From Candidatus Scalindua sp. (GTDB lineage: Bacteria > Planctomycetota > Brocadiia > Brocadiales > Scalinduaceae), in contig JALDRA010000001.1 in assembly GCA_031316235.1 (NCBI GenBank), forward strand, positions 300,001-332,000: a stretch of DNA of 32,000 nt, written 5' to 3'. Position numbers and translations under genes: made by a program. Below the pieces are notes generated by a model. The model was given only the letters and a program-made list of their open reading frames with translations, searched no databases and was not told the DNA's origin. Positions 2,664 through 26,137 of this stretch are shown here, one piece after another. The first letter of the stretch is position 1. Each line of letters starts with the position of its first letter.

Positions 2664-2680
2664 GATGAAGTAACAGTATT

Positions 2681-3085: not shown

Positions 3086-3091
3086 TCTTCC

Positions 3092-3757: not shown

Positions 3758-3780
3758 AAGTCTTTTGAAAGGGGGTATTT

Positions 3781-7058: not shown

Positions 7059-7170
7059 TATACTCATCTCATACTGGATTTCGGATAAAATCCGAGATTA
7101 AATTGAGCGAGTATACCTTCACCAAGATTTGGTTTCCGGTAAAACCGGAAACCAAATCGGTTTTAGTATA
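7059..7170 (+). repeat. MITE-like dispersed repeat family 1, full length (112 bp)
   Basis: TATACTCATCTCATACTGGATTTCGGATAAAATCCGAGAT...GGTTTCCGGTAAAACCGGAAACCAAATCGGTTTTAGTATA. Ends 13 nt before the ATG of the small ORF at 7184. Confidence 0.9.
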
Positions 7171-8181: not shown

Positions 8182-8323
8182 TATACTAAAACCGATTTTG
8201 TTTCCGGTTTTACCGGAAACAAAATCCTGGTGAAGGTATCCCCGGACAAAAGGCGCAGCCGAGGACTTAACTCGCTCAATTTTATCTCGGATTTTATCCG
8301 AAATCCAGTATGAGACGAGTATA
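8182..8323 (-). repeat. MITE-like repeat family 1, long subfamily (142 bp, 30-nt internal insertion)
   Basis: Same termini as the other copies, plus the insert ccccggacaaaaggcgcagccgaggactta. Lies between the LPS-kinase stop and the plsY start. Confidence 0.9.
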
Positions 8324-8339
8324 TCATGTATCCAAAGTC

Positions 8340-9455
8340 TTACTTTTTACCATATAAATCCGCCAACCACCACAAAAATCTATGTGTTTTGTAAGATGAT
8401 ACATAATATTTGAGAAAGGTTTTTAACCATTCTTCCTGGTTACGAAAAGAACCAGTGCCAACTTCGTGCCTCACCGATTTCTCCTCATTCGAACGGGCAG
8501 CAACAGCGGGCATAAACCTCCGTCCGGAACTGAGATATTCTCTCATGAACCGTATCTTGTCGCCATTCGTTATGTACCCTGTGCACGACACATGAGAACG
8601 GTTTTTCTTAGAGCTGTTTCTCCTGAATTTTTCCCATGATCTGTCAAGCCGCATGAGATTCTTCATTCTGCTCCGGGGTTTCAACTCATTAAACTGTTTA
8701 GATTTGTCAAGATCTATGATATAGGCTACAGATTTGTCTCTCCCCGCTGTTTGTAAAAGAATATTCTTCAAGTTCAGGTCTGCATGATAAATCCCGGCGT
8801 CGTGCATCTCCTTTATGGCATGTGCGACTCTGGAAATAATATCTCTCTTCTGTGCATAAAAAGTATTCTTATCATATCTCAAAAGCAGTTCCATGAGATC
8901 AGTAGAATTTCTGATTTCCCTTGAAATGAGCTTACTCTTATAAAACGGACCCAGAAACCTGTTTTTTATAATGGCAATTATTTCTATCGTCTGTATTCCT
9001 TTTTTAGATGCACTCTCACAAATTACAAGCTCCTGAATTGGACGCAGTCCGTGCCAGAATACGTCTCTTAATATCTTTCCAAACAGGCCGCCGTGCCAGT
9101 AATCTCTCACCACAAAACTTCCGTTATTGAGACTTTTCAGAAAAATACTTCTGCAAGGTGTTCTTCCATGGTAAGATACGCCGGCTTCGGCTCTTCCGGC
9201 ATATTGATCGTGCAGGACTCCTTTTGATGTTGCCTCCGGCTGGATGCTTGAAGATCCGGCCTTGACGTCTCTATATAAATCAAACAAAATATCAAGGTCC
9301 TGTTCCGTTAACTGTACCTCGTATTTTTTGTGAATATATAACGATATCCTCCCTTTTTTTAAAATAGTAAAATAGTCAGGCAGCCTTACCTTACTCATAA
9401 CAGGTGCAATTATAACAGATTCATAGTGCGAAGTCAAAAATGAGACAAAATTCAA
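8340..9455 (-). CDS. lipopolysaccharide kinase (Kdo/WaaP) family protein
   Basis: 371 aa. Catalytic loop HADLNLKNILL followed by IIDLDKS. Divergent from a heptosyltransferase gene. Start may be M21 (MSKVRLP). Confidence 0.7.
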   Translation of the reverse strand: MNFVSFLTSHYESVIIAPVMSKVRLPDYFTILKKGRISLYIHKKYEVQLTEQDLDILFDLYRDVKAGSSSIQPEATSKGVLHDQYAGRAEAGVSYHGRTPCRSIFLKSLNNGSFVVRDYWHGGLFGKILRDVFWHGLRPIQELVICESASKKGIQTIEIIAIIKNRFLGPFYKSKLISREIRNSTDLMELLLRYDKNTFYAQKRDIISRVAHAIKEMHDAGIYHADLNLKNILLQTAGRDKSVAYIIDLDKSKQFNELKPRSRMKNLMRLDRSWEKFRRNSSKKNRSHVSCTGYITNGDKIRFMREYLSSGRRFMPAVAARSNEEKSVRHEVGTGSFRNQEEWLKTFLKYYVSSYKTHRFLWWLADLYGKK

Positions 9456-9498
9456 TTGAAAAACTCAATCATTATACGATAAAATGTTTTCATAGATT

Positions 9499-10608
9499 AT
9501 GGAACCTCACGTGAAAGCAAAACCTGGAAAAATTTTAATAGTCCGTCTCAGTGCACTGGGTGACGTGGTAGATGTTCTCCCGGCATTGCGATCACTTCGG
9601 TCTCATTTCCCCAATTCAGAAATTGCATGGTTAGTTGAAGACAGAGCATGCAACATCCTTTCCGGTCATCCGGATATCGATAAGATTATAGTATTTCCGC
9701 GAAAAAGATGGCAACGGAATATATTACATTTACATACGTTCTTTGAGACCGTAAGCGACATGGTATCATTTTATCGTAACCTTCGCAATGAGAGGTATGA
9801 TTTCGTGTTAGATTTTCATGGTAATCTTAAAAGTGGTATCATGACTATTTTAACGGGTGCAGAAAATAGAATTGGGTTCGGGAAAGGACATTGTAAAGAA
9901 TTTAACTATCTGTTCACAAAATACCATATCACTCCTCCCAGAAAAAGAATACATAGAATTGAAAGAAACCTTACCCTGCTCAGCAGTTTAAACATTGACA
10001 CGGGATTCTTGAAACCAGAACTTCCCATATCAATACAGTGCCATGAATATGTTTCTGCTTTTTTAGAGACAAAACAGGTCTCTTCGAAACCCATAATTTT
10101 AGTACACCCTTGTACGAGTGCGTATGGTGCTTACAAGCGGTGGTCTACGTCAAATTATGCCCTCTTGGCCGACATGATCTTAACTAACTTTGATGCTCAC
10201 GTAATTTTCACTTGGGGACCGAATGAACTTGACATCATCGACGAGATAGTAGGTAAAATGAAAAATACGGCAATCGTTGCCTGCGAGACAACGATAAAAC
10301 AGCTCGTTGAACTCATACGCCAGGCCGATCTCTTTATTGGCGGAGATACTGGACCATTGCATATAGCGTCTACTCTCTGCATACCGACGGTCGCAATTTT
10401 CGGCCCCAAGGATCCCGCAATTTATGGCCCTTACAACGGTAATTCCATAATCGTAAGCAAGGAATTACCCTGTAGTCCGTGCAGACAGAGGACATGTTCT
10501 GACACTAAATGCATAACGACAATCTTACCGGAAGAAGTTTTTGATTCGGTCTCGAAGTTGATGACCGGATCTGTTCTTAAAAAAGTAACGGTCAAAACAC
10601 ACATCTAA
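9499..10608 (+). CDS. glycosyltransferase family 9 (LPS heptosyltransferase-like)
   Basis: 369 aa. N-terminal ILIVRLSALGDVV and C-terminal LFIGGDTGPLHIA motifs typical of GT9. Confidence 0.85.
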   Translation: MEPHVKAKPGKILIVRLSALGDVVDVLPALRSLRSHFPNSEIAWLVEDRACNILSGHPDIDKIIVFPRKRWQRNILHLHTFFETVSDMVSFYRNLRNERYDFVLDFHGNLKSGIMTILTGAENRIGFGKGHCKEFNYLFTKYHITPPRKRIHRIERNLTLLSSLNIDTGFLKPELPISIQCHEYVSAFLETKQVSSKPIILVHPCTSAYGAYKRWSTSNYALLADMILTNFDAHVIFTWGPNELDIIDEIVGKMKNTAIVACETTIKQLVELIRQADLFIGGDTGPLHIASTLCIPTVAIFGPKDPAIYGPYNGNSIIVSKELPCSPCRQRTCSDTKCITTILPEEVFDSVSKLMTGSVLKKVTVKTHI

Positions 10609-10692
10609 GAAATTCTTATCTTTTGTAACGCCACACTTTCTAAATTTCCAACCTGAACTTTCACAACAGAAACAACTCAACCAATTTTCATG

Positions 10693-10800
10693 TATACCAA
10701 ATCCTGGTGAAGATATCCCCGGACAAAAGGCGCAGCCGAGGACTTTACCCGCTCAATTTTATCTCGGATTTTGTCCGAAATCCAGTATGAGATGAGTATA
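10693..10800 (-). repeat. MITE-like repeat family 1, long subfamily with the second hairpin module deleted
   Basis: Keeps the terminal tatac, lacks the ccggtaaaaccg hairpin module, and carries the same 30-nt insertion as the copy at 8182-8323. Confidence 0.8.
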
Positions 10801-10939
10801 ACCCGATATTTTTACCTCTTCACAACACTGCGGGTTCAGACCTGCTGATCTTGTATTTCAACATTCAATGAAAAATGAGAGTTTTGCAGCTTGAGCACAG
10901 AGAGAAGAGACCCGATAGACTGCTAAACAGAGGTGACTG

Positions 10940-11623
10940 CTAATTCGAACCTGATTCAAGACCTGTGAGTATCCGTATACCCACTTTTGCAACCCCACTC
11001 TCTATTAAGTCTAATTCTTCGGCCGCTCTGTGAGAGACATTCAGAATTCTGTCGGTTGAAGGATAAAAACGATCAATGATAATTACTTCCACACTTCTTT
11101 TATTTCTTAAGTTCGTTACTGCTATTTTCGTATCAAATGGCAGGGATGGATGAGCTGCTGTCATTTTGTTTCTATCGTACCTCACTCCACTTGCAGTCAT
11201 TACCCCTTGATATTCATCTGATATAAATGCGGCAAAGCCTGTTTCATCGTATCTATCAGGTTGTTTTTCACTCTTTTTTCTGCTATCTTCACTACCATTA
11301 AAGGTTTCTAAAGGCTGAGTTCCGCCAGTCCCTGGTTCATTCATATCAATTTCCCCGCGGTAAATCATCTCACTTTCAGCCTTCCCCTTGTCAGCTGCGT
11401 TTAAATAGTACTCTTTCCTGTCTGCCTCTTCCTTCGGAGCTTGCCCCCGGCTTCCGCCTCTCTTTTCAACTACTCTCCTTGCGGTTTCATCACTATTTAC
11501 CTCTCTAAAAGCTGCAACATTTGTGTCCGCTTCTCTTCCATGAGATCCCCTGGTGTTCATACTCCCGCAGCCAATTATACAGGCAATACTCACCAATAGT
11601 GAAAAGACTTTCTTGTGCCTCAT
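10940..11623 (-). CDS. rlpA: RlpA-like (septal ring lytic transglycosylase family) lipoprotein
   Basis: Lipobox ACIIGCGS follows M14 of the ORF, so I place the start at 11623. C-terminal double-psi beta-barrel segment GVMTASGVRYDRNKMTAAHPSLPFDTKIAVTNLRNKRSVEVIIIDR. Confidence 0.75.
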   Translation of the reverse strand: MRHKKVFSLLVSIACIIGCGSMNTRGSHGREADTNVAAFREVNSDETARRVVEKRGGSRGQAPKEEADRKEYYLNAADKGKAESEMIYRGEIDMNEPGTGGTQPLETFNGSEDSRKKSEKQPDRYDETGFAAFISDEYQGVMTASGVRYDRNKMTAAHPSLPFDTKIAVTNLRNKRSVEVIIIDRFYPSTDRILNVSHRAAEELDLIESGVAKVGIRILTGLESGSN

Positions 11624-11726
11624 GCTTCGATATTTGACCACATTCCCCCCCCCCTTTAACAATTCCAGGAATTAATGCATAGAATTTATTCGCCGTACCA
11701 GGAAGCAGGTCAGTCCGGTACTGATA

Positions 11727-11838
11727 TATACTAAAACCGATTTGGTTTTCGGTTTTACCGGAAACTAAATCTTGGTGAAGGTATACTCGCTCCGTTTTTT
11801 CTCGGATTTTATCCGAAAACCATTATGAGATGAGTACA
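11727..11838 (-). repeat. MITE-like repeat family 1, full length
   Basis: 112-bp copy, 104 bp upstream of the rlpA-like start. One terminus has diverged (gagtaca). Confidence 0.9.
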
Positions 11839-12039
11839 ATTAAATCAAACAATTACAATAAATGAACCATTATGTCAAGAAAGTTTACTAAAAAGATTTA
11901 TAAACAAACTAACAGCTCTTAATTGGATGCTTCGGAATTCTAAAATAGGGCAGGATCTCTGGAAATAGAGGTTACAGAATTTTCATACTTCGCTTGACGT
12001 AAGCCGTGAAATGTCGTGAAAAAAAGAGGCAGAGGCGGA

Positions 12040-12172
12040 AAAAGAGCATTATACCGATTGTGCTGTACGTCGAGTAAATCTAGCCCCCCCTCATTGAGAA
12101 ACGAGGGGGGACAAACCAACCCAGTGGGCGGGGAGGTACAGAGTAACCCAAAGGGTTGAATAATGCTCTTTT
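12040..12172. other. 133-nt multi-hairpin structured element (complex terminator or ncRNA candidate)
   Basis: Perfect 13-bp closing stem aaaagagcattat (12040-12052) / ataatgctctttt (12160-12172). It encloses an 8-bp G/C hairpin cccccctc-N10-gagggggg (12085-12110) and aaccc-aaa-gggtt (12145-12157). Flanks are T-rich on both strands. Confidence 0.4.
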
Positions 12173-12257
12173 CTTCTTCGTAAATAATGGTTACTCTTTG
12201 AAGTAATAACCTTAATATCGACACTTTCCCAATTGTCTTTACGAAAAAAATTTTTCT

Positions 12258-14006
12258 TTATAACTGTTTATCCTGTTCCAGTAATTTTTCAAATTCATCG
12301 GCAGTAACCGGCTCACTGAACAGAAAGCCCTGTATCTCATCGCAATCCTGCTGTTTGAGAAAGTTTAACTGCTCTTGTGTTTCAACTCCTTCTGCAACAA
12401 TCTTAAGGTTCAGGTTTTTCGCCATGGCGATAAATGCCATGATGATTACTGAATCGTTGACGTCGAAGATTACTTCATTCACAAAAGAACGGTCAATCTT
12501 GAGTGTACTAAGCGGGAATTTTTTAAGATAGCTTAAGGAACACAATCCAGTACCCAAGTCGTCAATACTTATATGAACTCCGACATCAACCAATTCCCTC
12601 ATTTTGTAGGAGGAGGCATCCGCATTCTTCATGGACGTGTTTTCAGTAACTTCCAGTTCCAGCAGATTTGGTTCCATGCCTGTCTCATTTAATGCCTGCA
12701 CAACCATTTCAATAAGGTTTTGCTGGTTGAACTGCAGCGTGGAAAGGTTAACAGCCACACGCAGAGGAGTAAATCCTGCATCCCTCCATACCTTGTTTTG
12801 TGCACAAGCTGCCTTGAGGATCATTTCCCCCAGAGGCACTATCATTCTCGTTCGCTCTGCAGTATTCAAAAATTCTGCGGGATAGATTATACCTTTATCG
12901 GGGTGTCTCCATCTTGCAAGAGCTTCCATTCCAACAATCCTGCCACTCTTAATGTCCATCTGTGGTTGATAATAGACCATGAATTCTTTCCGCTTTAAGG
13001 CCTGGCGTAAATCGTTAACCATTGCCATCCTCGCATAAGCATTCGTCTGCAAGGGCGGTTTGTAAAACTGAAAGTTGTCTCTGCCCTGATCCCTGGCATG
13101 ATACATCGCGATATCGGCACTCTTTAACAAGGTATCAGCATCTTTACTGTCAACGGGATAAAGGGCTATCCCTATGCTGGTAGTAATATGCAGTTCGTGA
13201 GACTCCAGCGTTATTGGATGCCTCACGGTTTCGTTGATCTTGTTGGCCATTTCAGCGGCATCTTCTGCGTGAGTAATTCCCGGCAGTAACAACGTAAATT
13301 CGTCATCTCCATGACGTGTTACGGTATCATTCTTCCGCACAGTGTTTACAAATCTTTTTGCAACCTCTATCAGCAGCTTGTTTCCTATACAATTTCCAAG
13401 GGTATCATTTATTTTTTCAAATCCATCAAGGTCGAGAAACATAACCGCAATTATGGTATTATCACGCTGTGCATGAGCAATTTCCAGCGTAAGGCGATCC
13501 TTAAAAAGAAACCGGTTTGGCAAACCTGTCAAGGAATCATAGTACGTCAATTTTGTGTCTTCCCCCTCACCCTTTTTATGTTTGCAGATATAACGCCACT
13601 CGCGCAGCGCCCTTTCACATATGTACGGCATGTTTACTAAAGTCGCTTCAGATTTTAAGAGAGAATCCAAAGCCCCCAACTTTACAATTTTCTCCGTCAG
13701 CTGTTCATCGTCATAATTAGTTAAAACCAATACAGGTATTCCCTCCTTGGCATTACCTGCTCCAGAAAGTGTGGTATCTTTTCCATCCAACAGATCATAA
13801 TCGATAACCACCAGATCAGGAGAATACTTTGTCAGGCAGGTACGAGCCTCAATGAGATTGTGAACAGTTGTCTGTTTCATCTGCGGAAACCGGTTTTCAA
13901 AGGCCTGCTCCAGCAATTCAATAGGTAAGGCATCATTTACAACAAGTAAAATATGAATAGAATTCATTTTCATGGCAAAAAGAATAGTACTCCCGCACCT
14001 GTTCAA
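12258..14006 (-). CDS. response-regulator receiver + degenerate GGDEF + EAL domain protein (c-di-GMP phosphodiesterase-like)
   Basis: REC (ILLVVND...DLVVIDYDL...VLVLTN...KLGALDSLLK). GGDEF domain reads GDDEF and is preceded by RKND (RxxD I-site) at the canonical spacing. EAL domain has EALARW, DDLGTG, KIDRSF, EGVETQEQ. The likely start is M12 or M14 (13973 or 13967) rather than the ORF start. Confidence 0.9.
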   Translation of the reverse strand: MNRCGSTILFAMKMNSIHILLVVNDALPIELLEQAFENRFPQMKQTTVHNLIEARTCLTKYSPDLVVIDYDLLDGKDTTLSGAGNAKEGIPVLVLTNYDDEQLTEKIVKLGALDSLLKSEATLVNMPYICERALREWRYICKHKKGEGEDTKLTYYDSLTGLPNRFLFKDRLTLEIAHAQRDNTIIAVMFLDLDGFEKINDTLGNCIGNKLLIEVAKRFVNTVRKNDTVTRHGDDEFTLLLPGITHAEDAAEMANKINETVRHPITLESHELHITTSIGIALYPVDSKDADTLLKSADIAMYHARDQGRDNFQFYKPPLQTNAYARMAMVNDLRQALKRKEFMVYYQPQMDIKSGRIVGMEALARWRHPDKGIIYPAEFLNTAERTRMIVPLGEMILKAACAQNKVWRDAGFTPLRVAVNLSTLQFNQQNLIEMVVQALNETGMEPNLLELEVTENTSMKNADASSYKMRELVDVGVHISIDDLGTGLCSLSYLKKFPLSTLKIDRSFVNEVIFDVNDSVIIMAFIAMAKNLNLKIVAEGVETQEQLNFLKQQDCDEIQGFLFSEPVTADEFEKLLEQDKQL

Positions 14007-14044: not shown

Positions 14045-14116
14045 GACAAAGGGCAAAAAGAAAGCCTTACTACCAAATATGCACCGGCACGTCATATTCG
14101 GTAGTAAGGCTTTCTT
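14045..14116 (-). terminator. intrinsic terminator candidate on the minus strand
   Basis: 24-bp stem, 14058-14081 paired with 14093-14116. The single non-Watson-Crick position is G-U on the minus-strand RNA but A-C on the plus strand. On the minus strand it is followed by TTTTTGCCCTTTG. Confidence 0.55.
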
Positions 14117-14732
14117 CAGATAAACATCACTGTAATCTGTTTAAGATCCGTTACTTTGCGTCCCTGGATTACTCCAGGTTTGCCATTTTCGAAAATGTGC
14201 TATAAAAACACCTTACTCATGTGGATAATTTTTTGAACGCATGACCTTTGAGACATCGAAATTACGCAAAATATTTATTTGACTATACTATAACTCTATC
14301 AGCTTGTCAATACGACAAAAATACGCCTGTTAAGCAGAATATTCAGCCTGGAGAGTGAGATCATGGATTTTACTGATCAGGTTTGGTTAAGTTACAGATT
14401 TTCATAGTATGCTATTTTTTAAAACTTGTTTCTTTCACTGGTAATGAAAATACATGCCATTGAGACACACATACATTCACTGTCAGAGACGCAGGTTTCA
14501 GAAAAAAGTCATTCTCACAATCCAGCTTTTGATTTTCTTCATTCCCGTAAAGTACACATGCCCTGTAAACGTTGTAAAATTACCTTGTTACAGGCAAAAT
14601 GATTTGATTACTTTCTACTATGGTATTGAAAACATAGAACTTGACACCATGGTTACATTTGTTACCATAATGAGGTCTGTTGCGTTGACTCAATTACATA
14701 ACGAGAGATACTGGTGATCTGTAACGAGACAT

Positions 14733-14826: not shown

Positions 14827-15681
14827 ATGAACGAGCAATTAAACAATTGCAAAAGGATTGAACTACTCTTATCTGAAGCAAAATCTCCATTAACACTGCA
14901 GGAGATCTGCAGAAAAGTATTCCAATTGAAAAGTAACCTTGAACACTGCACACAAACCATACAGATTCTTCTGGACGCAGAAAAGATTTTCCATTATCCT
15001 TCTCTTCGGAAAAATTCAAAAGAAAGATACTGGCATATCTCACCCCAGCAATTTGTAAAAAATAAAATTTACCGATTGTTCGAAAAAAATTGTAAGGACC
15101 GTACATTCAAAAGCGTCAAAGGTATATTGCATAAATGGGAACTTGAATATTTTGATGAAGCCCTTGGTCTCTTATTCAGAGAAAGAAACGTTTTTGAGAT
15201 AAAATATGGCCGGACACGGTACTTAAAGGGGATACAAAAATTAACCACTGAATTGTCAGAATGGTTTAATCCCGTTCGAAACATAAAACTGACTCCTGCA
15301 CAGTGGGAAGCTTTTCTTAAAGGAGAAAAGCTTCCAGAGATGCAAACAGCACCGAAAAAATCAAAGGCTTCTTTACCGGAAGAACTGATCAGAGAATGGT
15401 ACCAGGAGGACCGGCACAAAAGATACGGACTAGAGACCATTCCAATAACGTGGACTGGTAACCGTTACCTCTCCTGGTGTGAAGAAAACGGACATGAAGC
15501 AGACATACAAGTATTTAACAACCGCCTGAAACTACTTTCCCAGGAGGGTAAGGTTGAATTGACGCATCATTCCATGCCTGATCAGATACCGGAAAGTGAA
15601 AGAAAAGACCTTTTTGAAATCCGTCATGGTACTATTGCATATTACTGGAGATATGTCATGGAGACTGAACAATGTCGATAG
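14827..15681 (+). CDS. hypothetical protein with predicted winged-helix (wHTH)-like segments; gene 1 of the candidate system
   Basis: 284 aa. N-terminal RIELLLSEAKSPLTLQEICRKV... looks HTH-like, with further wHTH-like stretches (FDEALGLLFRERNVFEIKYGRTRYL; NRLKLLSQEGKVELT). The stop overlaps the next start by 10 nt. Confidence 0.6.
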   Translation: MNEQLNNCKRIELLLSEAKSPLTLQEICRKVFQLKSNLEHCTQTIQILLDAEKIFHYPSLRKNSKERYWHISPQQFVKNKIYRLFEKNCKDRTFKSVKGILHKWELEYFDEALGLLFRERNVFEIKYGRTRYLKGIQKLTTELSEWFNPVRNIKLTPAQWEAFLKGEKLPEMQTAPKKSKASLPEELIREWYQEDRHKRYGLETIPITWTGNRYLSWCEENGHEADIQVFNNRLKLLSQEGKVELTHHSMPDQIPESERKDLFEIRHGTIAYYWRYVMETEQCR

Positions 15682-17780
15682 AAAAATACCTACACCTCAA
15701 CCCATTTATTAAATCATATATTAATGAAGTTGACATCTGGGGTAATGACGATGATTTCCAGACGGTAAATTCAATTAATAAAGAAGTTTTAGATGTCCTT
15801 TGTAAAGACATAGAAGAAGTGAGAAATCAACTGCATACAAGGGTGAGATTTCTTGTTGGAAGTTCCGGTTCAGGCAAATCACATATAATCTCATGTCTCA
15901 GGCGGTATCATAGTCAGCATGCATATTTTACTTATGTTTCAAACCCCCCTCTTCAGCATTGGGAGATCAGCAGGCATATGCTTCAGAAAATCATATGGGC
16001 GCTGGGACAACCTGTAAGAGAAAATGACAGGGTGCTGGAGTATTCCCAAATGCGTCAAATCGTGTATGGGCTTTTGATGAAAACAAAGAAGTTTGCAAGG
16101 AAATCATTCGATAAGGTACATAAAAAATGGACGAAGATTAAGAAGAAACATTATCCGAAATTTTTTAATGAATTAATGAAGGTTGCCGGTCAAGGCAGTG
16201 ATCTTAAATTAACAAACCAGATTACCAAAGTCTTACTGAGCGTACTCGATCACGAAAAAGAGAACCTCGCCCTTGAATGGTTGTCAGGTTCAAGCTCTAT
16301 GAGCAACAAAGATCTTGAAATAATTGATGCCGGTGAACCAATGAGTAATTCTGAAATAAAACTTCTTCTCACAGCGCTGGGACACCTCACAAAAGATATC
16401 GGTCCGATCCTGATAGTCTTAGATCAGCTTGACAGAATGAAAAATGAACATATAGAGATATTTGAGACAATCCTCTTTGATCTGTTCGATAGTACGAATT
16501 TTTATGTCGTAATCAGCTTACTTGAAGATGTGTTTGATACATGGTCAAGGCATCTCACCGTACCATTAAAGCAGCGGATTGGCACACCGTCTTCGGAGGG
16601 TTCACTAACATTGCCAATTGTCCACGTACGGGCAATCCATAACCGGAGAAACAAAAGAGCGCTTATCTTCCAGCGCCTCTCCTCTGAAGAGCTCATTGAG
16701 ATGCGCCAAAAAGATAAGATAGAAGATCCCCTCTTCCCCTTTAATGAAGAAATTTTAGAAAACGTACTGGGAGAGGATCCTCTTTTCCCGAGAATCTTAT
16801 TAAACGAATCCCAATTCCAGTATCGAAGTATCATTACCGGTGCCAAACCTGAAAAGGAAGAGCTCTCTGCAACGATAGCGGAAAATTTTGCAGAAATCAG
16901 AGAATCAATCAATACAGAAGAGCTCATCACGAATACAACGTTTATTGCCGACAGAATTTCCGAACTATTTGAAATAATTTTAAAACGAGATGGTGAAACA
17001 ACGGTCACATACGAGGATGGTCCCTTCGTAACTGATGCTATTGTGAATAATTTTATCGGTTCAGACAGGGTATTCTCCCTCGGTGATACCAGGATCCGTG
17101 TGATTGGATATGATGTCCAGCAAGGAAGCAAATTCCCGAGTGTTCTCAGGAAAATAGTAGATGCCCCCCCCAATACAATCTTATTTAGAGACGCCAAAAT
17201 ACCAACAACCGGGAAAGTTACTCAGGATCTTCTGGAGAAATTCCAAAAGGACAAAACCTTTATCCTGTTAGACAATAAGGACATTCGCGATCTTTATGCC
17301 CTGGGTAGATTGCTGGCAAAGATGCGGCAGGGTGATTTTCATGACTGTAAAACCGATCCGGATCCTACATCTTCAAATATCATGGATTGCCTTTCAAAAA
17401 TGTCAATCCTGACAGATAAAGAGATTGTACATGAATTCAAGCGAATGGCAGAAAACAGGACGAAAAGTAATAAGAATGATATCATGTCTCCAAGCAAACC
17501 GTATCCCGAACAGGATTGGCCTGCTGAAGAAGCCGCAGAAGTGGCAAATACACTTGCACATAACATTAAGACAATAATGAGCAGAGAGAGATGGATCTGC
17601 TTTGAACGCCTGCTCTATCTCATGTATCAAAGCGGCGTAAATGATATTGATCAGGGCAAACTTATCAGCTGGCTGCACTCAGAAGAGTTGAGAGAACTTT
17701 TAGAAATTTACCCAACTGATCCCGAGTTCCCGAAACAGAAAAAAATCATTGTCTGGAAAGAAGAGAGTCTGAATGCTTAA
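15672..17780 (+). CDS. P-loop NTPase (STAND/AAA_16/ORC-like), gene 2 of the candidate system
   Basis: 702 aa. Walker A VGSSGSGKSH (K69), Walker B-like ILIVLDQLD, and a long helical C-terminal region. GGAG lies 9 nt upstream of the ATG. The stop overlaps the next start by 8 nt. Confidence 0.7.
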   Translation: MSIEKYLHLNPFIKSYINEVDIWGNDDDFQTVNSINKEVLDVLCKDIEEVRNQLHTRVRFLVGSSGSGKSHIISCLRRYHSQHAYFTYVSNPPLQHWEISRHMLQKIIWALGQPVRENDRVLEYSQMRQIVYGLLMKTKKFARKSFDKVHKKWTKIKKKHYPKFFNELMKVAGQGSDLKLTNQITKVLLSVLDHEKENLALEWLSGSSSMSNKDLEIIDAGEPMSNSEIKLLLTALGHLTKDIGPILIVLDQLDRMKNEHIEIFETILFDLFDSTNFYVVISLLEDVFDTWSRHLTVPLKQRIGTPSSEGSLTLPIVHVRAIHNRRNKRALIFQRLSSEELIEMRQKDKIEDPLFPFNEEILENVLGEDPLFPRILLNESQFQYRSIITGAKPEKEELSATIAENFAEIRESINTEELITNTTFIADRISELFEIILKRDGETTVTYEDGPFVTDAIVNNFIGSDRVFSLGDTRIRVIGYDVQQGSKFPSVLRKIVDAPPNTILFRDAKIPTTGKVTQDLLEKFQKDKTFILLDNKDIRDLYALGRLLAKMRQGDFHDCKTDPDPTSSNIMDCLSKMSILTDKEIVHEFKRMAENRTKSNKNDIMSPSKPYPEQDWPAEEAAEVANTLAHNIKTIMSRERWICFERLLYLMYQSGVNDIDQGKLISWLHSEELRELLEIYPTDPEFPKQKKIIVWKEESLNA

Positions 17781-19620
17781 ACCTGAAATTTTTAAACTTG
17801 AAATAACTACCGAGTTAAGAAACAAATTACAACAGAAATTATTTGAGACTCTTTTTGACAACATTGATGAACTCCCGCCACTTCACAGGACGAAGGAGGG
17901 TATCCCCTCATTTACGGTAACAGAAATTAAAGAGAGACTGAAGGCCCTCCTTCCCACTTATGCAAAAGACATCAGTCAACATTTAAAAATTACCCCGAAA
18001 GATAAAAGAACGGATGCCCTTAATATTGGAAACCAACTTCATGAGTGGTTGAAAGAAGCAATCCTGTTTTTCCGAAGAGAAGGTGCAGAGTGTCTACGGG
18101 AAGGATTAAGCCGGCCTGGTCCGGATGAAGCATACCCGTTTGTATGGAGTACTCTTTTCCATAGAAAGCTTATCTCATTAGCTCAATCATCAGGGCTGTT
18201 AAAGAACGATAGTGATATTGAGAAGTGCGATATACTCATGGAGTGTATTAAATTGTGGGTAAAAGAGATTTGCCAGAATCTGAAAAAATTGAACATGAAA
18301 AAATTTTCACCGTCTGCATATTTTCTGGACATGGAAACACAGCTTGATGCCATAATACGTTTTGGTGACAAAAAGATCCATGTCCGCAGCAGACCAGATG
18401 CCGTTACCTTAAATCAGGCCAATGGGGAAATCTGTCTGTGGGAGTACAAGTATGGAAACCAGGGCCAGTATGAACTGCAGATTGCACAGGTATTGTTTTA
18501 CATGTCATTGATTGAAGCCGTAAAAGGAGTAAAGTGTAAACGGGCGATCTTGTGGTCATTCAGCCCCCGTGAAGAAATACTGCCACAGAAAGTACGAGAA
18601 GATATCAAGATTGAAGAACCTGCGCCTCCCTTCCCTGAAGAAGTGGAAGAAGCCTTTTCAGGATATATTGGAAATGAATTATCTGTCAGAAAGCTAAAAG
18701 TAAAGCTTACGCTGGCAACCAAAAAACAACCAAGGAAAATGCCAGATAATATTATGTTCTGCGGACCAGCCGGTCTGGGGAAGACGGAACTGGCAAAAAG
18801 AGTTGCTTCGTGCCTGGAATTGCCTTTTATTAATATACCCGCTATCTCATTCAGTAATCTGGAACAGCTGGTTTCAGAAATCGACCGAACTCTCAGGGCA
18901 CACAACTTGGAAACAGAAGAGAGCGGCATTGATTCAGGAAAGCCCAGGCGTAAATATCCCCCGCTCGTTCTCTTTATAGACGAAGCACACAGACTTTCAA
19001 GAAGGGCTGATGAATTTCTGAATTTTTTTGAGCCAAAAGAACGAAGGGCAGTTGTAAAAGAGTTTGTGGGAGATTTCGTTGATGCTACAATTTTATTAGC
19101 AACAACCGACAAGGGTGCCCTGCCTTCAGCATTTCTCACCCGCTTCAGAATGCTAGACCTTGTACCTTACTCTATCGAAGAAGTGGGCATGATAATTTAT
19201 GAGGAATTCAAGAATAAGGATATGGTAATAACCGCTGATGTATGCCGGGGAATTGCAAAGGTGGGGAGGCTGGTACCTCGTCTCGCCTTAAGCCGGATGG
19301 GCGATTTTCTTGAACACAATGAATTTAAAGCAGAATCATATCCTTTTTCAATGAAAGGTCTGCAAAACATGCTGAAAGAAGTTTGGCTCGTTGACGAAAA
19401 CGGGCTTACGCCCAGCGACTTCCTGTACCTTGACTGCGTAAAGGAGCAGCCCAGGGGCGTTCTCATATTGAACAATTTGCTGCCATGCAAAATAGAAGAG
19501 ATCAGAAACATCATTGAACCATATCTGATGCAGATAAATGCCGTAAAATCGACAAAGCGGGGACGCTCGATAACTGAATATGGGAGAATGATACTGAAAA
19601 ACAGACCGGAATGGCTGTAA
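17773..19620 (+). CDS. fusion protein: N-terminal RecB/Cas4-like PD-(D/E)xK nuclease + C-terminal RuvB-like AAA+ ATPase with winged-helix tail; gene 3 of the candidate system
   Basis: 615 aa. Nuclease motifs SRPD209AV, LWE224YK226 and Q239VLFY243. AAA+ motifs FCGPAGLGKT (K337), LVLFIDEAH (D403/E404), LLATTDKGALPSAFLTRF. C-terminal EPYLMQINAVKSTKRGRSIT parallels the RuvB EPYLIQ...RTPRGR segment. Confidence 0.75.
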   Translation: MLKPEIFKLEITTELRNKLQQKLFETLFDNIDELPPLHRTKEGIPSFTVTEIKERLKALLPTYAKDISQHLKITPKDKRTDALNIGNQLHEWLKEAILFFRREGAECLREGLSRPGPDEAYPFVWSTLFHRKLISLAQSSGLLKNDSDIEKCDILMECIKLWVKEICQNLKKLNMKKFSPSAYFLDMETQLDAIIRFGDKKIHVRSRPDAVTLNQANGEICLWEYKYGNQGQYELQIAQVLFYMSLIEAVKGVKCKRAILWSFSPREEILPQKVREDIKIEEPAPPFPEEVEEAFSGYIGNELSVRKLKVKLTLATKKQPRKMPDNIMFCGPAGLGKTELAKRVASCLELPFINIPAISFSNLEQLVSEIDRTLRAHNLETEESGIDSGKPRRKYPPLVLFIDEAHRLSRRADEFLNFFEPKERRAVVKEFVGDFVDATILLATTDKGALPSAFLTRFRMLDLVPYSIEEVGMIIYEEFKNKDMVITADVCRGIAKVGRLVPRLALSRMGDFLEHNEFKAESYPFSMKGLQNMLKEVWLVDENGLTPSDFLYLDCVKEQPRGVLILNNLLPCKIEEIRNIIEPYLMQINAVKSTKRGRSITEYGRMILKNRPEWL

Positions 19621-19739: not shown

Positions 19740-19851
19740 TATACTAAAACCGATTTGGTTTTCGGCTTTTCTGAAAACCAAATCTTGGTGAAGGTATACC
19801 CGCTCCGTTTTTTCTCGGATTTTATCCGAAATCCAGTATGAAATGAGTATA
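19740..19851 (-). repeat. MITE-like repeat family 1, full length
   Basis: 112-bp copy between the convergent stops of the nuclease-AAA+ gene and the DUF442 gene. Confidence 0.9.
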
Positions 19852-19865
19852 AAACAGGTCTTCTT

Positions 19866-20438
19866 CTAACGTTTCAGTAGTTTCTGAACAACGGGCTCAA
19901 GAGAAGTCAATCCCGCTCTCTTCCCAATCTCCAGAGCTTCTCTAGCACTCTTTCCTTCAATGGAAAAGGCTTTAAGCGCAAAAAGAGCACCGACCCTGTT
20001 TCCACTCTGACAATGAACAATGAGGGGATAGTTTTCCTGTTTTGATAAAATTTCTGCCAAAAGTTTTGCATTCTCCACACTGATACCGGTTGCACCGTTA
20101 ACTGGAACAGGGAAATATCTCATCCCCAATTCTTCAACCCACAAAGACTCACGGGCAGGGCTGGGACGCTCTTTATCAGTTCGAAGGTTAACGACCGCCT
20201 TAAACCCCGCATCATGTGCCATCTTTAGCTGGTCATAGGCAGGTTGGCCGCCAGTCACAATATCATCAAACGGCACACGTTCATTGATGAGTTTAAAAGG
20301 TGATCTCCCACCTTCCTTGACTAACGTCTCCTTCTGCACAGTTTCATTATCTGCGAAGAGAGGAAAAGCAACCAATATGATGAGCACTGTCTGAAAAACA
20401 GCTTTATTATAATATTTCATTAATAATCCCCTTATCAC
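19866..20438 (-). CDS. DUF442/TIGR01244-type phosphatase-like protein (secreted)
   Basis: 190 aa. N-terminal signal peptide and a CX5R P-loop HCQSGNRVG. The GGQP...GFKAVVNLR...YFPVPV layout is typical of the beta-lactamase-hydrolase-like phosphatase domain. Confidence 0.7.
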   Translation of the reverse strand: MIRGLLMKYYNKAVFQTVLIILVAFPLFADNETVQKETLVKEGGRSPFKLINERVPFDDIVTGGQPAYDQLKMAHDAGFKAVVNLRTDKERPSPARESLWVEELGMRYFPVPVNGATGISVENAKLLAEILSKQENYPLIVHCQSGNRVGALFALKAFSIEGKSAREALEIGKRAGLTSLEPVVQKLLKR

Positions 20439-20495
20439 TTTTTAAATTTTTCTGATTTGAAAGGTACAGTCTCTGCTTATAACCTTTCGTGTATT

Positions 20496-20609
20496 TATAC
20501 TCATCTCATACTGGATTTCGGATAAAATCCGAGATAAATTTGAGCGAGTATACCTTCACCAAGATTTGGTTTCCGGTAAATCCGAAAACCAAATCTTGGT
20601 GAAGGTATA
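20496..20609 (+). repeat. MITE-like repeat family 1, rearranged variant
   Basis: The left two thirds are canonical. The normal right terminus is replaced by an inverted copy of the internal tataccttcaccaagatttgg module, giving a near-perfect 61-nt palindrome at 20549-20609. Confidence 0.85.
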
Positions 20610-21614: not shown

Positions 21615-22670
21615 TCATGCAACTAAGGTATTTAAAAACTTTGCCATTTCATGAAACTTACCAAAATCTCTTCGGTTAAAATCCATGACAAGCCTCGGCA
21701 TAGTACTGTCGCCCACACCTTCCTCACCTGTAGAATGAGGTGGTGATAGTCGTATAGTTCCTGATCGAAGAATACTCTTGTATTTCTCATTCAGGAGCTG
21801 TATATCTTCACTCTTCAACAAGCGATTGAGATTGATGACTGTCTTCTCTTCAAAATATCGCATCGAGTGATAGACCCTGAAAAATTTTAAAATTTCATCC
21901 AGCGCTTCCTCAACATCATGTGTATGAAAAAACAGATTCAAATCCTCGGGCGAAATAAAGCCTCCTTTTGCGAGGGTTTCCCGCAAGAATGTCATCCATT
22001 TCCCCCAGTAGTTCGACTCAGGTGGTTCTATCAGAATAAGAGGGAGGGGTTTACTTTTTCCCGTCTGGATTAATGTCAGGTTTTCAAAACATTCATCCAT
22101 TGTACCAAAACCACCGGGAAATAAAACGGTTGCATCGGATTCTTTGAGAAAAAACAGTTTTCTGTTAAAAAAGTACTTAAAGGTAATAGCTTTTTTGTCA
22201 CCTTCGATGTATGGATTATGACGTTGTTCAAAAGGGAGTCTGATATTCAAGCTGAAACTGTTTTCACGCTTTGCACCCTTGTTCCCGGCTTCCATTATCC
22301 CGGGTCCCCCACCGGTAATTACCTTAAAACCATGATTAACCATCAACGCTGACAACTTTTCCGCCATCTTATATTCCGCAGAGTCGTTCCGAGTCCGTGC
22401 TGACCCGAAGAAGACAACCTTTCTTGTGTTTCGGTAGGGCACAAATGTCTTCGCTGCATATCGTAGCTCCTTCAACGCCTTATTGATCAGCTTGAGATCT
22501 CCCCTGTCGCTATTTTCTCTTCCCAATTTTAAAATGGTCGTAACCATCTCCTTCAGGAGATCGGCATTCTCATGAGTAGAACAGAGCTCCGCAAGGTCAG
22601 CTATGGTCCTGAAGAAATTATCTCTCACTCCATCGCACTTTCCCATTTTGCGCTTTTCCATATAAATCAT
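21615..22670 (-). CDS. LOG family (TIGR00730) protein, PpnN/YgdH-like nucleotide 5'-monophosphate nucleosidase
   Basis: 351 aa. Motifs GGGPGIMEAGNKGA and PGGFGTMDE, with N- and C-terminal extensions as in the long LOG forms. The SD AAGGAG overlaps the atpK stop. Start at M1 versus M4 is unresolved. Confidence 0.75.
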   Translation of the reverse strand: MIYMEKRKMGKCDGVRDNFFRTIADLAELCSTHENADLLKEMVTTILKLGRENSDRGDLKLINKALKELRYAAKTFVPYRNTRKVVFFGSARTRNDSAEYKMAEKLSALMVNHGFKVITGGGPGIMEAGNKGAKRENSFSLNIRLPFEQRHNPYIEGDKKAITFKYFFNRKLFFLKESDATVLFPGGFGTMDECFENLTLIQTGKSKPLPLILIEPPESNYWGKWMTFLRETLAKGGFISPEDLNLFFHTHDVEEALDEILKFFRVYHSMRYFEEKTVINLNRLLKSEDIQLLNEKYKSILRSGTIRLSPPHSTGEEGVGDSTMPRLVMDFNRRDFGKFHEMAKFLNTLVA

Positions 22671-23121: not shown

Positions 23122-23145
23122 TCAACCCCTCCTGTAAAATTTGAT

Positions 23146-23257
23146 TATACTCATCTCATACTGGATTTCGGATAAAATCCGAGATAAAATTGAGCGAGTA
23201 TACCTTCACCAAGATTTGGTTTCCGGTAAAACCGAAAACCAAATCGGTTTTAGTATA
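23146..23257 (+). repeat. MITE-like repeat family 1, full length
   Basis: 112-bp copy in the atpI-atpK spacer, 24 nt upstream of the atpK ATG. Confidence 0.9.
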
Positions 23258-25889: not shown

Positions 25890-26000
25890 ATACTAAAACC
25901 GATCTGGTTTTCGGTTTTACCGGAAACCAGATCCTGGTGAAGGTATACTCGCTCAAATTTATCTCGGATTTTATCCGAAATCCAGTATGAGATGAGTATA
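25889..26000 (-). repeat. MITE-like repeat family 1, full length
   Basis: 112-bp copy in the atpB-atpD spacer. Its terminal base (25889) is the first base of the atpD ATG. Confidence 0.9.
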
Positions 26001-26137
26001 ACAAGTTATAATCCTTTACTCCGCTCTCGATGAAGTGACACTGAGATGAGTATCCATTGAAAAATGCAGGGGTAATTTTCCAGCAACCTTTACTATAAAG
26101 CTCGTTGGAAAACAGGCCCAGCAATTCATTCTTCAGA

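Follow-up and report, generated by a model that had tools for sequence, protein, structure and literature searches.

A RecB/Cas4-type nuclease fused to a RuvB-like motor in a conserved three-gene cassette, a candidate system against invading DNA

What use does a bacterium make of a RuvB-like motor that is joined to a nuclease in one polypeptide? The question is raised by an open reading frame (gene C; Table 1) of Candidatus Scalindua sp., which lies in the window, the whole 32,000-nucleotide stretch of DNA that was analysed, and which a sequence-only reading had described as such a fusion. Here we confirm that gene C encodes a PD-(D/E)xK nuclease half fused to a complete three-domain RuvB-like AAA+ half. 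The gene does not stand alone, being the last of a conserved, translationally coupled operon, A-B-C.

Results

Four Pfam families matched gene C above their gathering scores, namely AAA (46 bits), RuvB_C (44.9), RuvB_N (39.6) and PDDEXK_1 (24.1), and the AlphaFold model of the protein had a pLDDT of 88.4. All motif strings and residue numbers quoted in the sequence-only reading were present, and they were conserved across 29 family members with 33-87% identity.

Profile and structure searches both supported the proposed PD-(D/E)xK fold of the N-terminal half and placed it with the RecB/Cas4 type. The PDDEXK_1 match was barely over threshold (cut-off 22, E 4e-5), and the same family was matched by 11 of the 22 isolated N-domains of the family, with a best E of 3.4e-12. 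When the N-domain was modelled alone (pLDDT 86), the top Foldseek matches were ACE1 (Cas4-family), AdnA, the AddA/AddB nuclease domains and Cas4 SSO0001, the top 12 having probabilities of 0.97-1.0 and modest TM values of only 0.3-0.42. Alignment of the 29 members showed conservation of G86xxLH, D153/E157, G206-x-P208-D209-A210, (E/D)224-Y225-K226, E234 and Q239xxxY243, with motifs II-IV invariant or at least 90% conserved. The same alignment contained no conserved cysteine cluster, which agrees with a nuclease that lacks Fe-S cysteines. Conflict systems have repeatedly turned PD-(D/E)xK domains into sensors (PMC12839542), and the ExK lysine is missing in one family member (P0055), as would suit a domain that does not cut DNA in vivo and instead senses DNA ends or nucleotides or acts as a tether, while the RuvB-like ring remodels DNA or protein-DNA complexes without degradation. 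We regard this as highly improbable, since ~30 sequences with identities as low as 33% keep D209, E224, K226, Q239 and Y243, together with D153/E157, either unchanged or at 90% conservation or more, and such conservation of the full catalytic set would be unexpected for an inactive domain.

Profile, sequence and structure searches all grouped the AAA+ half with RuvB, and not with clamp loaders or IstB. The closest relative by sequence among solved structures was Thermotoga maritima RuvB, which aligned over aa 297-609 (E 2e-15). The 44 best matches of the AlphaFold model in the PDB were all RuvB (TM 0.69-0.82 on target, E down to 4.5e-17), followed by spastin and HslU at ~0.58. Together with the Pfam matches, these results bear out the three-domain architecture. 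The lid domain is seen in the structure model only; it was covered by the RuvB Foldseek alignments (315-339 columns), and the Pfam lid model PF17864 was unmatched. Conserved among the 29 members were Walker A, D403E404, sensor-1 T444, the arginine finger R457 and sensor-2 R503, the last of which was invariant, and in the head domain E582-P583-Y584 and G597-R598, with E582-P583 and G597-R598 invariant. In the two members that diverge most, the acidic pair of Walker B has been lost.

Table 1 Features of the A-B-C cassette, in positions of the window.
Feature	Position	Strand	Description
Gene A	14827..15681	+	284 aa, first gene of the cassette; stop overlaps gene B start; orthologues upstream of B-C
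Gene B	15672..17780	+	702 aa, AAA_16/KAP/BrxC-BrxD/'Orc1-like' P-loop NTPase (Pfam; UniRef name)
Walker A of gene B	15858..15881	+	G63-S-S-G-S-G-K69-S70; invariant in 8 orthologues
Walker B of gene B	16410..16433	+	hhhhD251-Q-L-D254; D251, Q252, L253 and D254 invariant
Gene C	17773..19620	+	Nuclease and RuvB-like motor fusion; 615 aa, ATG start, end coordinate includes stop
RecB/Cas4-family PD-(D/E)xK nuclease domain	17773..18582	+	aa 1-270; PDDEXK_1 aa 69-266; Foldseek; no conserved cysteines
Catalytic core motifs II-IV	18385..18501	+	aa 205-243; R205-G-x-P-D209-A, E224-Y-K226, E234, Q239xxxY243
Variable linker	18583..18651	+	aa 271-293; pLDDT 57-67, <50 at aa 280-283; length-variable in alignment
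RuvB-like large AAA+ domain	18652..19167	+	aa 294-465; RuvB_N and AAA (Pfam), T. maritima RuvB alignment, conservation
Walker A of gene C	18763-18786	+	G331PxGxGKTE, within large AAA+ domain
Clade-specific insertion	18892..18963	+	aa ~374-397, ends Y395-P396-P397; modelled beta-hairpin just before Walker B strand
Walker B of gene C	18967-18984	+	D403E404, within large AAA+ domain
Pre-sensor-1 beta-hairpin region	19030..19086	+	aa ~420-438; shortened by 6 residues relative to canonical RuvB (alignment)
Lid (small AAA+) domain	19168..19392	+	aa 466-540; sensor-2 R503; four modelled helices
RuvB-type C-terminal winged-helix (head) domain	19393..19617	+	aa 541-615; RuvB_C aa 542-608, E 1.1e-11

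The motor of gene C belongs to a distinct, non-canonical RuvB-like clade. Although it shares with the RuvB of RuvABC the large AAA+, lid and winged-helix head domains, as well as Walker A/B, sensor 1, the arginine finger, sensor 2 and the EPYLxQ...RGR head motif, identity is only 25-30%, and gene C carries an extra N-terminal nuclease domain of 290 aa. It also has a 21-residue insertion before Walker B (modelled strands at aa 382-387 and 390-394) that is present in all non-canonical RuvB-like modules and missing in canonical RuvB; whatever the length class within the clade, a median of 64 residues separates Walker A from Walker B, versus 43 in seven canonical RuvB proteins. In canonical RuvB, the pre-sensor-1 hairpin and helix alpha3 form the docking site of RuvA domain III, and the C-terminal winged-helix domain binds DNA (PMC9477746). 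Because this RuvA-docking hairpin is shortened in the non-canonical clade by a 6-residue deletion, the earlier description of a branch-migration-type motor should not be read as literal branch migration. Neither ruvA nor ruvC was found in the window, as had been noted before, and in the loci examined gene C was always linked to gene B and not to ruvA. This linkage, the NCBIfam RuvB equivalog scores (104 and 92 bits, far under the cut-offs of 282 and 299) and the rarity of the family, which forms only ~20 clusters at 50% identity in a set of 1.84 billion representatives, argue indirectly that gene C is not the housekeeping RuvB. The clade also occurs at the end of ~1750-aa proteins and, inside a DndD/DndC locus, fused to DndE, which parallels the published DndE-HerA/FtsK fusions (PMC10853773).

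Reading frames overlap in the window at both the A/B and the B/C junction, the latter by 8 nt. Gene B matched AAA_16 (33.3 bits, cut-off 32.6), KAP_NTPase (26 bits, cut-off 20) and, weakly, BrxC_BrxD, the last of which was matched by an orthologue without being flagged as weak; the orthologue Nhal_1463 bears the UniRef name 'Orc1-like AAA ATPase domain'. Its invariant residues include N10-P11-F12, W23, G63..G66xGKSH71 and D251-Q-L-D254. No relative of gene B was found among solved structures, and the fold assignment of its C-terminal ~400 aa is weak. Gene A had no significant family match, PADLOC, PHROGs and NCBIfam all being empty. A weak match to the RPA32 winged helix (E 0.16) and sub-threshold Pox_D5 matches at the same C-terminal position in four orthologues suggest, as a weak assignment, that it probably consists of tandem winged-helix, DNA-binding repeats. 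Its orthologues are co-linear upstream of B-C in nine loci from several phyla.

At least seven phyla contain the cassette. Genes A, B and C are co-linear in Scalindua, Desulfomonilaceae, Syntrophales, Vicinamibacteria, Pseudomonadota/Gammaproteobacteria and the cultured Nitrosococcus halophilus Nc 4, whose cassette is Nhal_1462-1464, and B-C is present without A in Verrucomicrobia and others. In some lineages, B and C form one protein of ~1130-1190 aa, in which a B-like NTPase is followed by PDDEXK_1 and then the RuvB-like module; in one such fusion (P0098), aa 2-281 aligned to the gene B profile (hhalign probability 95.6%, E 1e-8), including the Walker B motif. In a distant variant (L039), a B-like gene (E 1.3e-27 to the gene B profile) precedes a fusion of PDDEXK_1/Cas4 (E 2e-17) with FtsK_SpoIIIE (E 3e-32). 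Its nuclease is homologous to that of gene C but, unlike the gene C family, has Fe-S cysteines, and an FtsK-type pump replaces the RuvB-like motor. The pairing of the same nuclease, in the same operon, with two different hexameric dsDNA pumps argues that the job of the motor is dsDNA translocation, and it strengthens the earlier proposal that gene C may couple ATP-driven translocation to cleavage.

About half of the neighbourhoods examined contained transposases, integrases, toxin-antitoxin pairs or TIR genes, and in about half, the window among them, every gene was of a housekeeping type or lacked annotation. At locus L024 the cassette has TIR, DruA-like, transposase, integrase and resolvase genes as neighbours, and at L001 transposases and an integrase; PIN, antitoxin or nucleotidyltransferase pairs lie nearby at L002, L026 and L028, the last also with a transposase fragment. 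The repeat adjoining the cassette in the window is a dispersed genomic element. Within Scalindua, the cassettes occupy a fixed site and diverge as their flanks do, which indicates vertical inheritance. No DNA methyltransferase or other self/non-self discriminator was found linked to the cassette.

The recombination genes at L001, L024 and L028, a very weak TniB match of gene B (E 0.075) and the FtsK-type motor of the sister variant, a type typical of conjugative transfer, could instead mean that the cassette serves a mobile element and not host defence, for instance by transferring, segregating or processing DNA, or as a regulator and nuclease pair for transposition like TnsC/TnsA of Tn7. This appears quite improbable, as no recombinase or transposase is kept with the cassette across the loci examined, in the window it is not enclosed by terminal repeats, the adjoining repeat being of the dispersed kind, and no copies were found on sequenced plasmids or phages or among confirmed IMG/VR matches; the chromosomal position in Scalindua is fixed.

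That position, flanked by housekeeping genes and vertically inherited, would also suit an accessory DNA repair or recombination machine that processes Holliday junctions or stalled forks by itself: branch points would be moved by the RuvB-like ring and cut by the fused nuclease, gene A would recognise DNA in a RuvA-like role and gene B would act as loader. RuvB is indeed the closest homologue across all three motor domains, the RecB/AddB/AdnA-type nucleases that best match the N-domain structure are repair enzymes, and recA lies ~5 kb off at L002/L003. We nevertheless consider this reading unlikely: with ~20 clusters at 50% identity, the distribution is very sparse and patchy for a gene that serves repair, the RuvA-docking hairpin is shortened, gene B is an Orc1/BrxC-D-like NTPase of a sort often met in conflict systems, an FtsK-type pump, which does not carry out branch migration, can take the place of the motor, and several loci hold mobile-element, toxin-antitoxin or TIR genes.

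Discussion

From the domain architecture, the intact motifs in both halves, the operon linkage, the B-C fusions, the motor swap and the patchy distribution over phyla, we think it fairly likely that A-B-C is an accessory cassette against invading or selfish DNA, with gene C as its candidate effector. The cassette is best read as a RuvB-motor variant of systems predicted by comparative genomics to act against selfish elements, whose parts are an Orc/CDC6 ATPase, a catalytically active REase, a translocase of the HerA/FtsK type and, often as a separate protein, 2-4 winged helices (PMC10853773, NAR 2024). The parts list of these mobile 'HerA/FtsK capture' gene neighbourhoods is that of A-B-C apart from the motor, the counterpart of gene A being only tentative, and in both the number of polypeptides that carry the domains varies from one to three; the variant with a B-like gene and a Cas4-like-FtsK fusion fits the published systems directly. 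They differ in that the translocase in the window is a RuvB-like AAA+ module and not HerA/FtsK, and RuvB is unmentioned in that paper by term counts. The inactive REase that is reported to be inserted in their Orc/CDC6 protein was not detectable in gene B, and gene A matched neither the DptG nor the SspB models of PADLOC.

The logic of an AAA+ motor with a PD-(D/E)xK nuclease is shared with McrBC and related type IV restriction enzymes, in which a ring-forming AAA+ NTPase and a PD-(D/E)xK endonuclease couple NTP hydrolysis to DNA cleavage. McrB, however, is a GTP-specific AAA+ protein from another clade, and its partner nuclease, McrC, forms a separate subunit; McrB and McrC models in Pfam and PADLOC had no match in the cassette, and no modified-DNA reader domain was found. 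In the HerA-DUF4297 type of anti-phage effector, a hexameric DNA-translocating ATPase works with a PD-(D/E)xK-type nuclease, and its sequential ATP cycle has been likened to those of FtsK and RuvB (PMC11291478). HerA has a RecA-like fold, whereas the motor of gene C is AAA+ RuvB-like, and that system has two genes, a separate nuclease protein and neither an Orc1-like NTPase nor a winged-helix partner. RecB/AddB/AdnA, Cas4, ACE1 and the UvrD-Cas4-like fusions (PMC5704561) belong to the same nuclease family (PF12705; GxxxH, GxxD, ExK, QxxxY), and here too such a nuclease is joined with a DNA motor in one protein. The motors of RecB/AddB/AdnA and of the UvrD-Cas4-like proteins are SF1 or SF2 helicases, in contrast to the AAA+ ring of gene C, and Cas4 and AddB carry the Fe-S cysteines that the gene C family lacks.

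In such a cassette, gene C would form a hexameric ring around dsDNA, as RuvB does, and pump DNA by ATP hydrolysis, and its six tethered RecB/Cas4-type nuclease domains would cut the incoming DNA as it is reeled in. Gene B, an Orc1/BrxC-D/AAA_16-like P-loop NTPase, may be the sensor, switch or loader that sets where or when gene C engages, and gene A, the probable multi-winged-helix protein, may supply DNA recognition. The cassette had no match in PADLOC 2023 beyond the P-loop level, and no description of the RuvB lineage in a DNA-destroying nuclease cassette was found in the searchable literature. If our reading is true, a motor of the RuvB lineage would have been put to use in destroying invading DNA.

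The nuclease and motor halves of protein C

Protein C of Candidatus Scalindua, an anammox planctomycete, starts with ATG, comprises 615 aa and is identical to a Candidatus Scalindua sp. protein annotated merely as 'AAA family ATPase'. The Pfam models matched above threshold were PDDEXK_1 (PF12705, aa 69-266), RuvB_N (294-351), AAA (327-461) and RuvB_C (542-608). The best NCBIfam models were two RuvB equivalogs, NF000868 and TIGR00635, whose cut-offs were missed (104.1 bits vs 282, and 92.4 vs 299), and the best sequence match in the PDB was T. maritima RuvB (aa 297-609, E 2e-15). An AlphaFold2 model was built on an alignment of 29 family members that were 33-87% identical to the window protein (mean pLDDT 88.4, pTM 0.79). 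Its first 44 Foldseek matches in the PDB were all RuvB chains (over 315-339 aligned columns, with TM 0.69-0.82 on target and a best E of 4.5e-17), followed by spastin and HslU at TM about 0.58, which places all three domains of the motor half, as modelled, with RuvB. The large AAA+ domain, the lid and the C-terminal winged helix were all present, together with Walker A and B, sensor 1, the arginine finger and sensor 2.

The PDDEXK_1 match of C was marginal (24.1 bits vs a cut-off of 22), and the same model matched 11 of 22 isolated N-domains of the family, with a best E of 3.4e-12. Because AAA+ matches dominated the Foldseek list of the full-length protein, aa 1-290 were modelled apart (pLDDT 86). 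The top 13 matches of this model were ACE1, an Argonaute-associated Cas4-family protein, AdnA and the nuclease domains of AddA/AddB, with Cas4 SSO0001 matched more weakly; the probability was 0.97-1.0 for the first 12 and E started from 3e-4, with a TM of only 0.3-0.42 because of long helical inserts. The sequence profile of the N-domain gave nothing meaningful against PDB chains. The ordered GxxxH, GxxD, (D/E)xK and QxxxY motifs were all found. Across the 29 sequences, G86xxLH, D153/E157, GxPD209A, E224-Y-K226, E234 and Q239xxxY243 of the nuclease were invariant or at least 90% conserved, as were Walker A, Walker B D403E404, sensor-1 T444, the arginine finger R457, sensor-2 R503 and the winged-helix EPY...GR of the motor. 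These results bear out the sequence-only reading, which had described a RuvB-like module fused to a Cas4/RecB-family nuclease and had named the motif residues of both halves. The conserved catalytic residues are hard to square with a nuclease domain that serves as a non-catalytic sensor, an explanation that we regard as very improbable.

No cysteine was conserved in the 29-sequence alignment, and a Fe-S cluster in C was therefore dismissed, as had been supposed from the single sequence. Cas4 proper (TIGR00372/PF01930), in contrast, has a four-cysteine Fe-S cluster; since C is without it and scored 14.9 bits against the TIGR00372 cut-off of 65, C is not a Cas4 proper. It does belong to the wider nuclease family PF12705. 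In the two most divergent family members, P0060 and P0061 (also at loci L004/L005), which were found as B-C pairs without A, the Walker B 'DE' is replaced by 'RH' or 'SN' (LLLRHAH, LLLSNVQ), with Walker A and the nuclease motifs retained, and these may be variants that bind ATP and are deficient in hydrolysis.

A separate clade of RuvB-like motors

RuvB is usually seen as a housekeeping motor, present in one copy and working solely with RuvA and RuvC. Canonical RuvB has the three domains and the ATPase motifs in common with C. We aligned seven canonical RuvB proteins with four kinds of RuvB-like module: the C family, a DndE fusion, the C-termini of proteins of about 1730 aa (L018, L019) and an archaeal 709-aa protein (L020). 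Two features were common to all four kinds: an insertion of about 21 residues, ending in YPP, that directly precedes the Walker B strand, and a pre-sensor-1 beta-hairpin 6 residues shorter than the full-length hairpin of the seven canonical proteins. Among the 150 best representatives, taken at 50% identity, the spacing from Walker A to Walker B had a median of 64 residues in every length class, vs 43 in seven of seven canonical RuvB. C is thus not a canonical RuvB, since it lies below the equivalog cut-offs and has the shortened hairpin. In RuvB, the pre-sensor-1 hairpin and helix alpha3 form the docking place of RuvA domain III, which stimulates the ATPase (PMC9477746). The alignment shows a separate RuvB-like clade in which part of this putative docking element appears to be lost, and the remodelled hairpin would fit a motor independent of RuvA.

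An exhaustive phmmer search against 1.84 billion representatives gave 2163 matches at E <=1e-3, 581 at <=1e-10 and 92 at <=1e-30. The 150 best representatives included nuclease fusions of about 600 aa (n=17), B-C fusions (n at least 5), proteins of about 475 aa (n=7), stand-alone forms of about 350 aa (n=40) and proteins of at least 1300 aa (n=52), the last with no recognisable domain besides the RuvB-like module. These giants, which end in the RuvB-like module, measure about 1300-1970 aa, mostly about 1700-1850 aa (P0101-P0225 and the proteins of L018 and L019), and occur in Gemmatimonadetes, Dehalococcoidia and others; at the two loci examined, an overlapping gene of 514-532 aa without a family match lies directly upstream. 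A neighbour-joining tree, which carries no support values, serves only as an illustration.

In a Dnd-type locus of a Planctomycetota MAG (L017), a 477-aa protein joins DndE to a non-canonical RuvB-like module; its gene has DndD (PADLOC E 3e-76) on one side and, on the other, a PAPS reductase resembling DndC. This arrangement parallels the published DndE-HerA/FtsK fusions (PMC10853773), with a RuvB-like motor instead. No description of DndE fused to a RuvB-like module was found in open-access papers and preprints.

Genes A and B, natural fusions and a motor swap

C is the last gene of a three-gene cassette, A-B-C, in which stops and starts overlap between neighbours. A scan for promoters and terminators gave counts not above shuffled expectation. 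From its sequence B is a P-loop NTPase, with Walker A GSSGSGKS, Walker B hhhhDQLD, an AAA_16 match just above the cut-off, KAP_NTPase and a weak BrxC_BrxD match in Pfam; the UniRef name of one orthologue is 'Orc1-like AAA ATPase domain' protein. No relative was found for the B sequence profile in the PDB, and a search with the profile added one protein only. Compared by hhalign in search of an inactive REase within B, the B and nuclease profiles gave a probability of 0.5%, and B and C profiles likewise gave nothing; the domain assignment of the C-terminal part of B is weak. A had no significant family match and nothing meaningful by sequence profile against the PDB, with weak winged-helix-type signals at one recurring place in several orthologues.

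Coordinates of the cassette, related loci and neighbouring features (window features are numbered within the window)
Feature	Locus or source	Position	Strand	Description
A	window	14827-15681	+	284 aa, first gene
B	window	15672-17780	+	702 aa, second gene
C	window	17773-19620	+	ORF including stop
Response-regulator gene	window	12258-14006	-	response-regulator-GGDEF-EAL protein
c-di-GMP-I riboswitch	window	14097-14194	-	Rfam RF01051
Phosphatase-like gene	window	19866-20438		190 aa, directly after cassette
SLOG/LOG-family gene	window	21615-22670	-	Lysine_decarbox + LDcluster4
Repeat copies	window	7057-7158, 8194-8323, 10746-10801, 11739-11836, 19752-19853		about 100-nt repeat
Further repeat copies	window	20494-20609, 23145-23245, 25901-26001, 31028-31126, 31273-31312		about 100-nt repeat
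SLOG/LOG gene	L029	9075-9884	+	269 aa, directly upstream of B
Cassette	L028, Nitrosococcus halophilus Nc 4	9105-13871 (CP001798.1 about 1,486,644-1,491,410)		Nhal_1462-1464; A 294 aa, B 688 aa (Nhal_1463), C 603 aa
B-C fusion P0098	L037; L038	7168-11393; 118-4343		1130 aa, AAA_16/NACHT-like NTPase + PDDEXK_1 + RuvB-like
Sister cassette	L039, Logan SRR22388151 contig	118-4849		277, 690 and 611 aa, third gene truncated by contig end
Dnd-type locus	L017, JACQRL010000056.1	2594-6495		DndE-RuvB-like gene and neighbours
Giant RuvB-ended genes	L018; L019	4228-10993; 4318-11026		
Split B	L001	5947-7999		123 + 552 aa
B with in-frame stop	L011	3490-5598		
Frameshifted C	L013	4097-5921		

In proteins of about 1130-1190 aa, an N-terminal B-like NTPase is followed by PDDEXK_1 and, after that, by the RuvB-like module. 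In one of them, P0098, aa 2-281 matched the B profile with a probability of 95.6% over the NPF motif, Walker A, WLxG and the DQhD Walker B. Such fusion of B and C into one protein in some lineages is strong evidence that the two act together. Upstream of the P0098 gene, and overlapping it, lies a gene for 278 aa that has a weak match to EAP30/Vps36 (tandem winged-helix, E 0.004) and no detectable homology to A.

In the sister cassette L039, the second gene encodes P0229, which was the most distant of the B-like proteins found. The third encodes a nuclease homologous to that of C (PDDEXK_1 E 2e-17, BLASTP to C 3e-5), which carries a CxxCxxxxxC motif and is fused to FtsK_SpoIIIE (E 3e-32), with no RuvB-like module. 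That one nuclease, in one kind of operon, is joined to two unrelated hexameric dsDNA pumps suggests translocation of dsDNA as the contribution of the motor, and this natural swap of RuvB for FtsK is a built-in comparison for what the motor contributes.

Distribution and gene neighbourhoods

By tblastn of the A, B and C proteins across all fetched loci, adjacent and co-linear A-B-C cassettes were found in Scalindua, Desulfomonilaceae, Syntrophales, Vicinamibacteria, unclassified Pseudomonadota and Gammaproteobacteria, and Nitrosococcus halophilus Nc 4; B-C without A was found in a Verrucomicrobia MAG and on other contigs. As N. halophilus Nc 4 is cultured and completely sequenced, it is a practical experimental source of the cassette. 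Neither ruvA nor ruvC was present in the 32-kb window, in agreement with what had been read from the sequence, or in any fetched locus. For canonical ruvB in Scalindua or other anammox genomes, open-access papers and preprints held nothing usable.

Mobile, toxin-antitoxin or defence-type genes lay within 10 kb of the cassette in five or six of 11 independent annotated neighbourhoods, a small sample. These were TIR, DruA-like, transposase, integrase and resolvase genes in L024, transposases and an integrase in L001, and PIN, antitoxin or nucleotidyltransferase pairs in L002, L026 and L028, the last of which (N. halophilus) also has antitoxin-like genes, part of a transposase and a DUF87/HerA-like gene of 1107 aa. 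The remaining neighbourhoods, the window included, had housekeeping or unannotated flanks. In Scalindua the site is constant (GGDEF/EAL - A-B-C - phosphatase - RpiB) and the cassette is 79-87% identical, like its flanks, which indicates vertical inheritance within the genus.

This vertical inheritance, together with the RuvB and RecB/AddB affinities of C, would suit an accessory repair or recombination machine, the main rival to a defence function. The sparse and patchy distribution, the Orc1/BrxC-D-like partner B, the FtsK swap in L039 and the mobile or toxin-antitoxin neighbourhoods all speak against such a machine, and we consider it unlikely. That the cassette serves a mobile element itself is less probable still, since no recombinase is conserved with it; a Tn7-like TnsA/TnsC reading was rejected because the cassette has no conserved transposase beside it. 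No full-length relative was present in PLSDB plasmids, in INPHARED phages or among the IMG/VR matches listed, and these collections gave only canonical ruvB, matching aa 325-601 of C at about 29% identity (for IMG/VR, among the matches listed).

Further features of the window and of related loci

The c-di-GMP-I riboswitch in the window (64 bits; gathering score 35) lies upstream of the response-regulator gene; since this gene encodes GGDEF and EAL domains, a riboswitch for c-di-GMP appears to control an enzyme of c-di-GMP turnover. An intergenic repeat of about 100 nt with an internal hairpin is dispersed in about ten copies over the 32 kb in both orientations, the seven full-length copies being 84-91% identical. 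It also occurs in other Scalindua species (L008, L009) and resembles REP or MITE elements. An inverted pair of copies flanks the phosphatase-like gene, and the 102-nt inverted repeat beside the cassette was rejected as an element end, because it belongs to this repeat family, which is dispersed across the window.

In some conflict systems, SLOG domains serve to sense nucleotides. The SLOG/LOG-family gene of the window is found 2 kb downstream from the cassette, and in L029 a related gene stands where A would be; this proximity may be coincidence. The split B of L001, the in-frame stop in B of L011 and the frameshift in C of L013 could be gene decay or MAG assembly errors and were set aside as evidence.

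A probable conflict system and its relation to known systems

The most economical reading, and in our judgement the probable one, is that A-B-C is a three-gene conflict (defence) system. In such a system, the RuvB-like part of C would assemble as a ring on duplex DNA and translocate it using ATP, and the tethered RecB/Cas4-type nucleases would cut the translocated DNA; B would be the sensor, switch or loader and A the DNA-recognition subunit. What the sequences show directly is the architecture, the conserved motifs, the linkage of the genes, the fusions and the motor swap.

The closest described kind, themselves only predicted, are mobile neighbourhoods that combine an Orc/CDC6 ATPase, an active REase and a HerA/FtsK translocase in one or several polypeptides (PMC10853773). 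They often add a protein with 2-4 winged-helix domains (DptG/SspB/FokI-like), their Orc/CDC6 protein is described as having an inactive REase inserted after its ATPase core and before a wHTH at the C-terminus, and the authors propose that they act against selfish elements. The window cassette has the same layout, with a RuvB-like pump replacing HerA/FtsK. The active PD-(D/E)xK REase effector is matched by the nuclease of C; the HerA/FtsK translocase, in contrast, is missing from the window protein and present in L039, which fits the published description. As a possible counterpart of the Orc/CDC6 ATPase, B rests on the near-threshold AAA_16, the KAP_NTPase and weak BrxC_BrxD matches and the UniRef name, and A may correspond to the winged-helix accessory protein by its weak signals, with no match to DptG/SspB in PADLOC. 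RuvB is unmentioned in PMC10853773, a fusion of RuvB or AAA+ to a PDDEXK_1-type nuclease is undescribed in the BREX and Cas4 phylogenomics papers examined, and no description of a RuvB-nuclease fusion was found in open-access papers and preprints. PADLOC-DB 2.0.0 (2023) gave no significant full-length system-protein model for A, B or C, local matches being to the P-loop (DolB, IetA, PtuA, SngB, mad3) and weakly to part of Cas4, with none for A. PHROGs gave only P-loop-level or generic AAA+ matches.

The motors known in ATP-dependent DNA destruction are SF1/SF2 helicases, McrB and HerA/FtsK. If A-B-C is a defence system, an AAA+ pump of the RuvB type would join this small set, and the cassette would give experimental access to the predicted systems of Orc/CDC6 ATPase, nuclease and translocase. 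The RuvB-like clade is wired to a nuclease, to DndE or to very large proteins, and stands in operons with an Orc1/BrxC-D-like NTPase. A wider and more tentative reading, which we hold to be a serious possibility short of the probable case, is that conflict systems of prokaryotes have repeatedly taken their DNA pump from a hitherto unrecognised clade of RuvB paralogues, which would give the lineage of the Holliday-junction motor an immune branch. Such an immune branch would be marked by the 21-residue insertion before Walker B and the shortened RuvA-docking hairpin, and its fusion partners would be a Cas4-like nuclease, DndE in phosphorothioation loci, B-like NTPases and the proteins of about 1750 aa. 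It may retain a preference for branched or replicating DNA and, if this is true, invaders would be recognised through the structure of their DNA, not through its sequence or modification.
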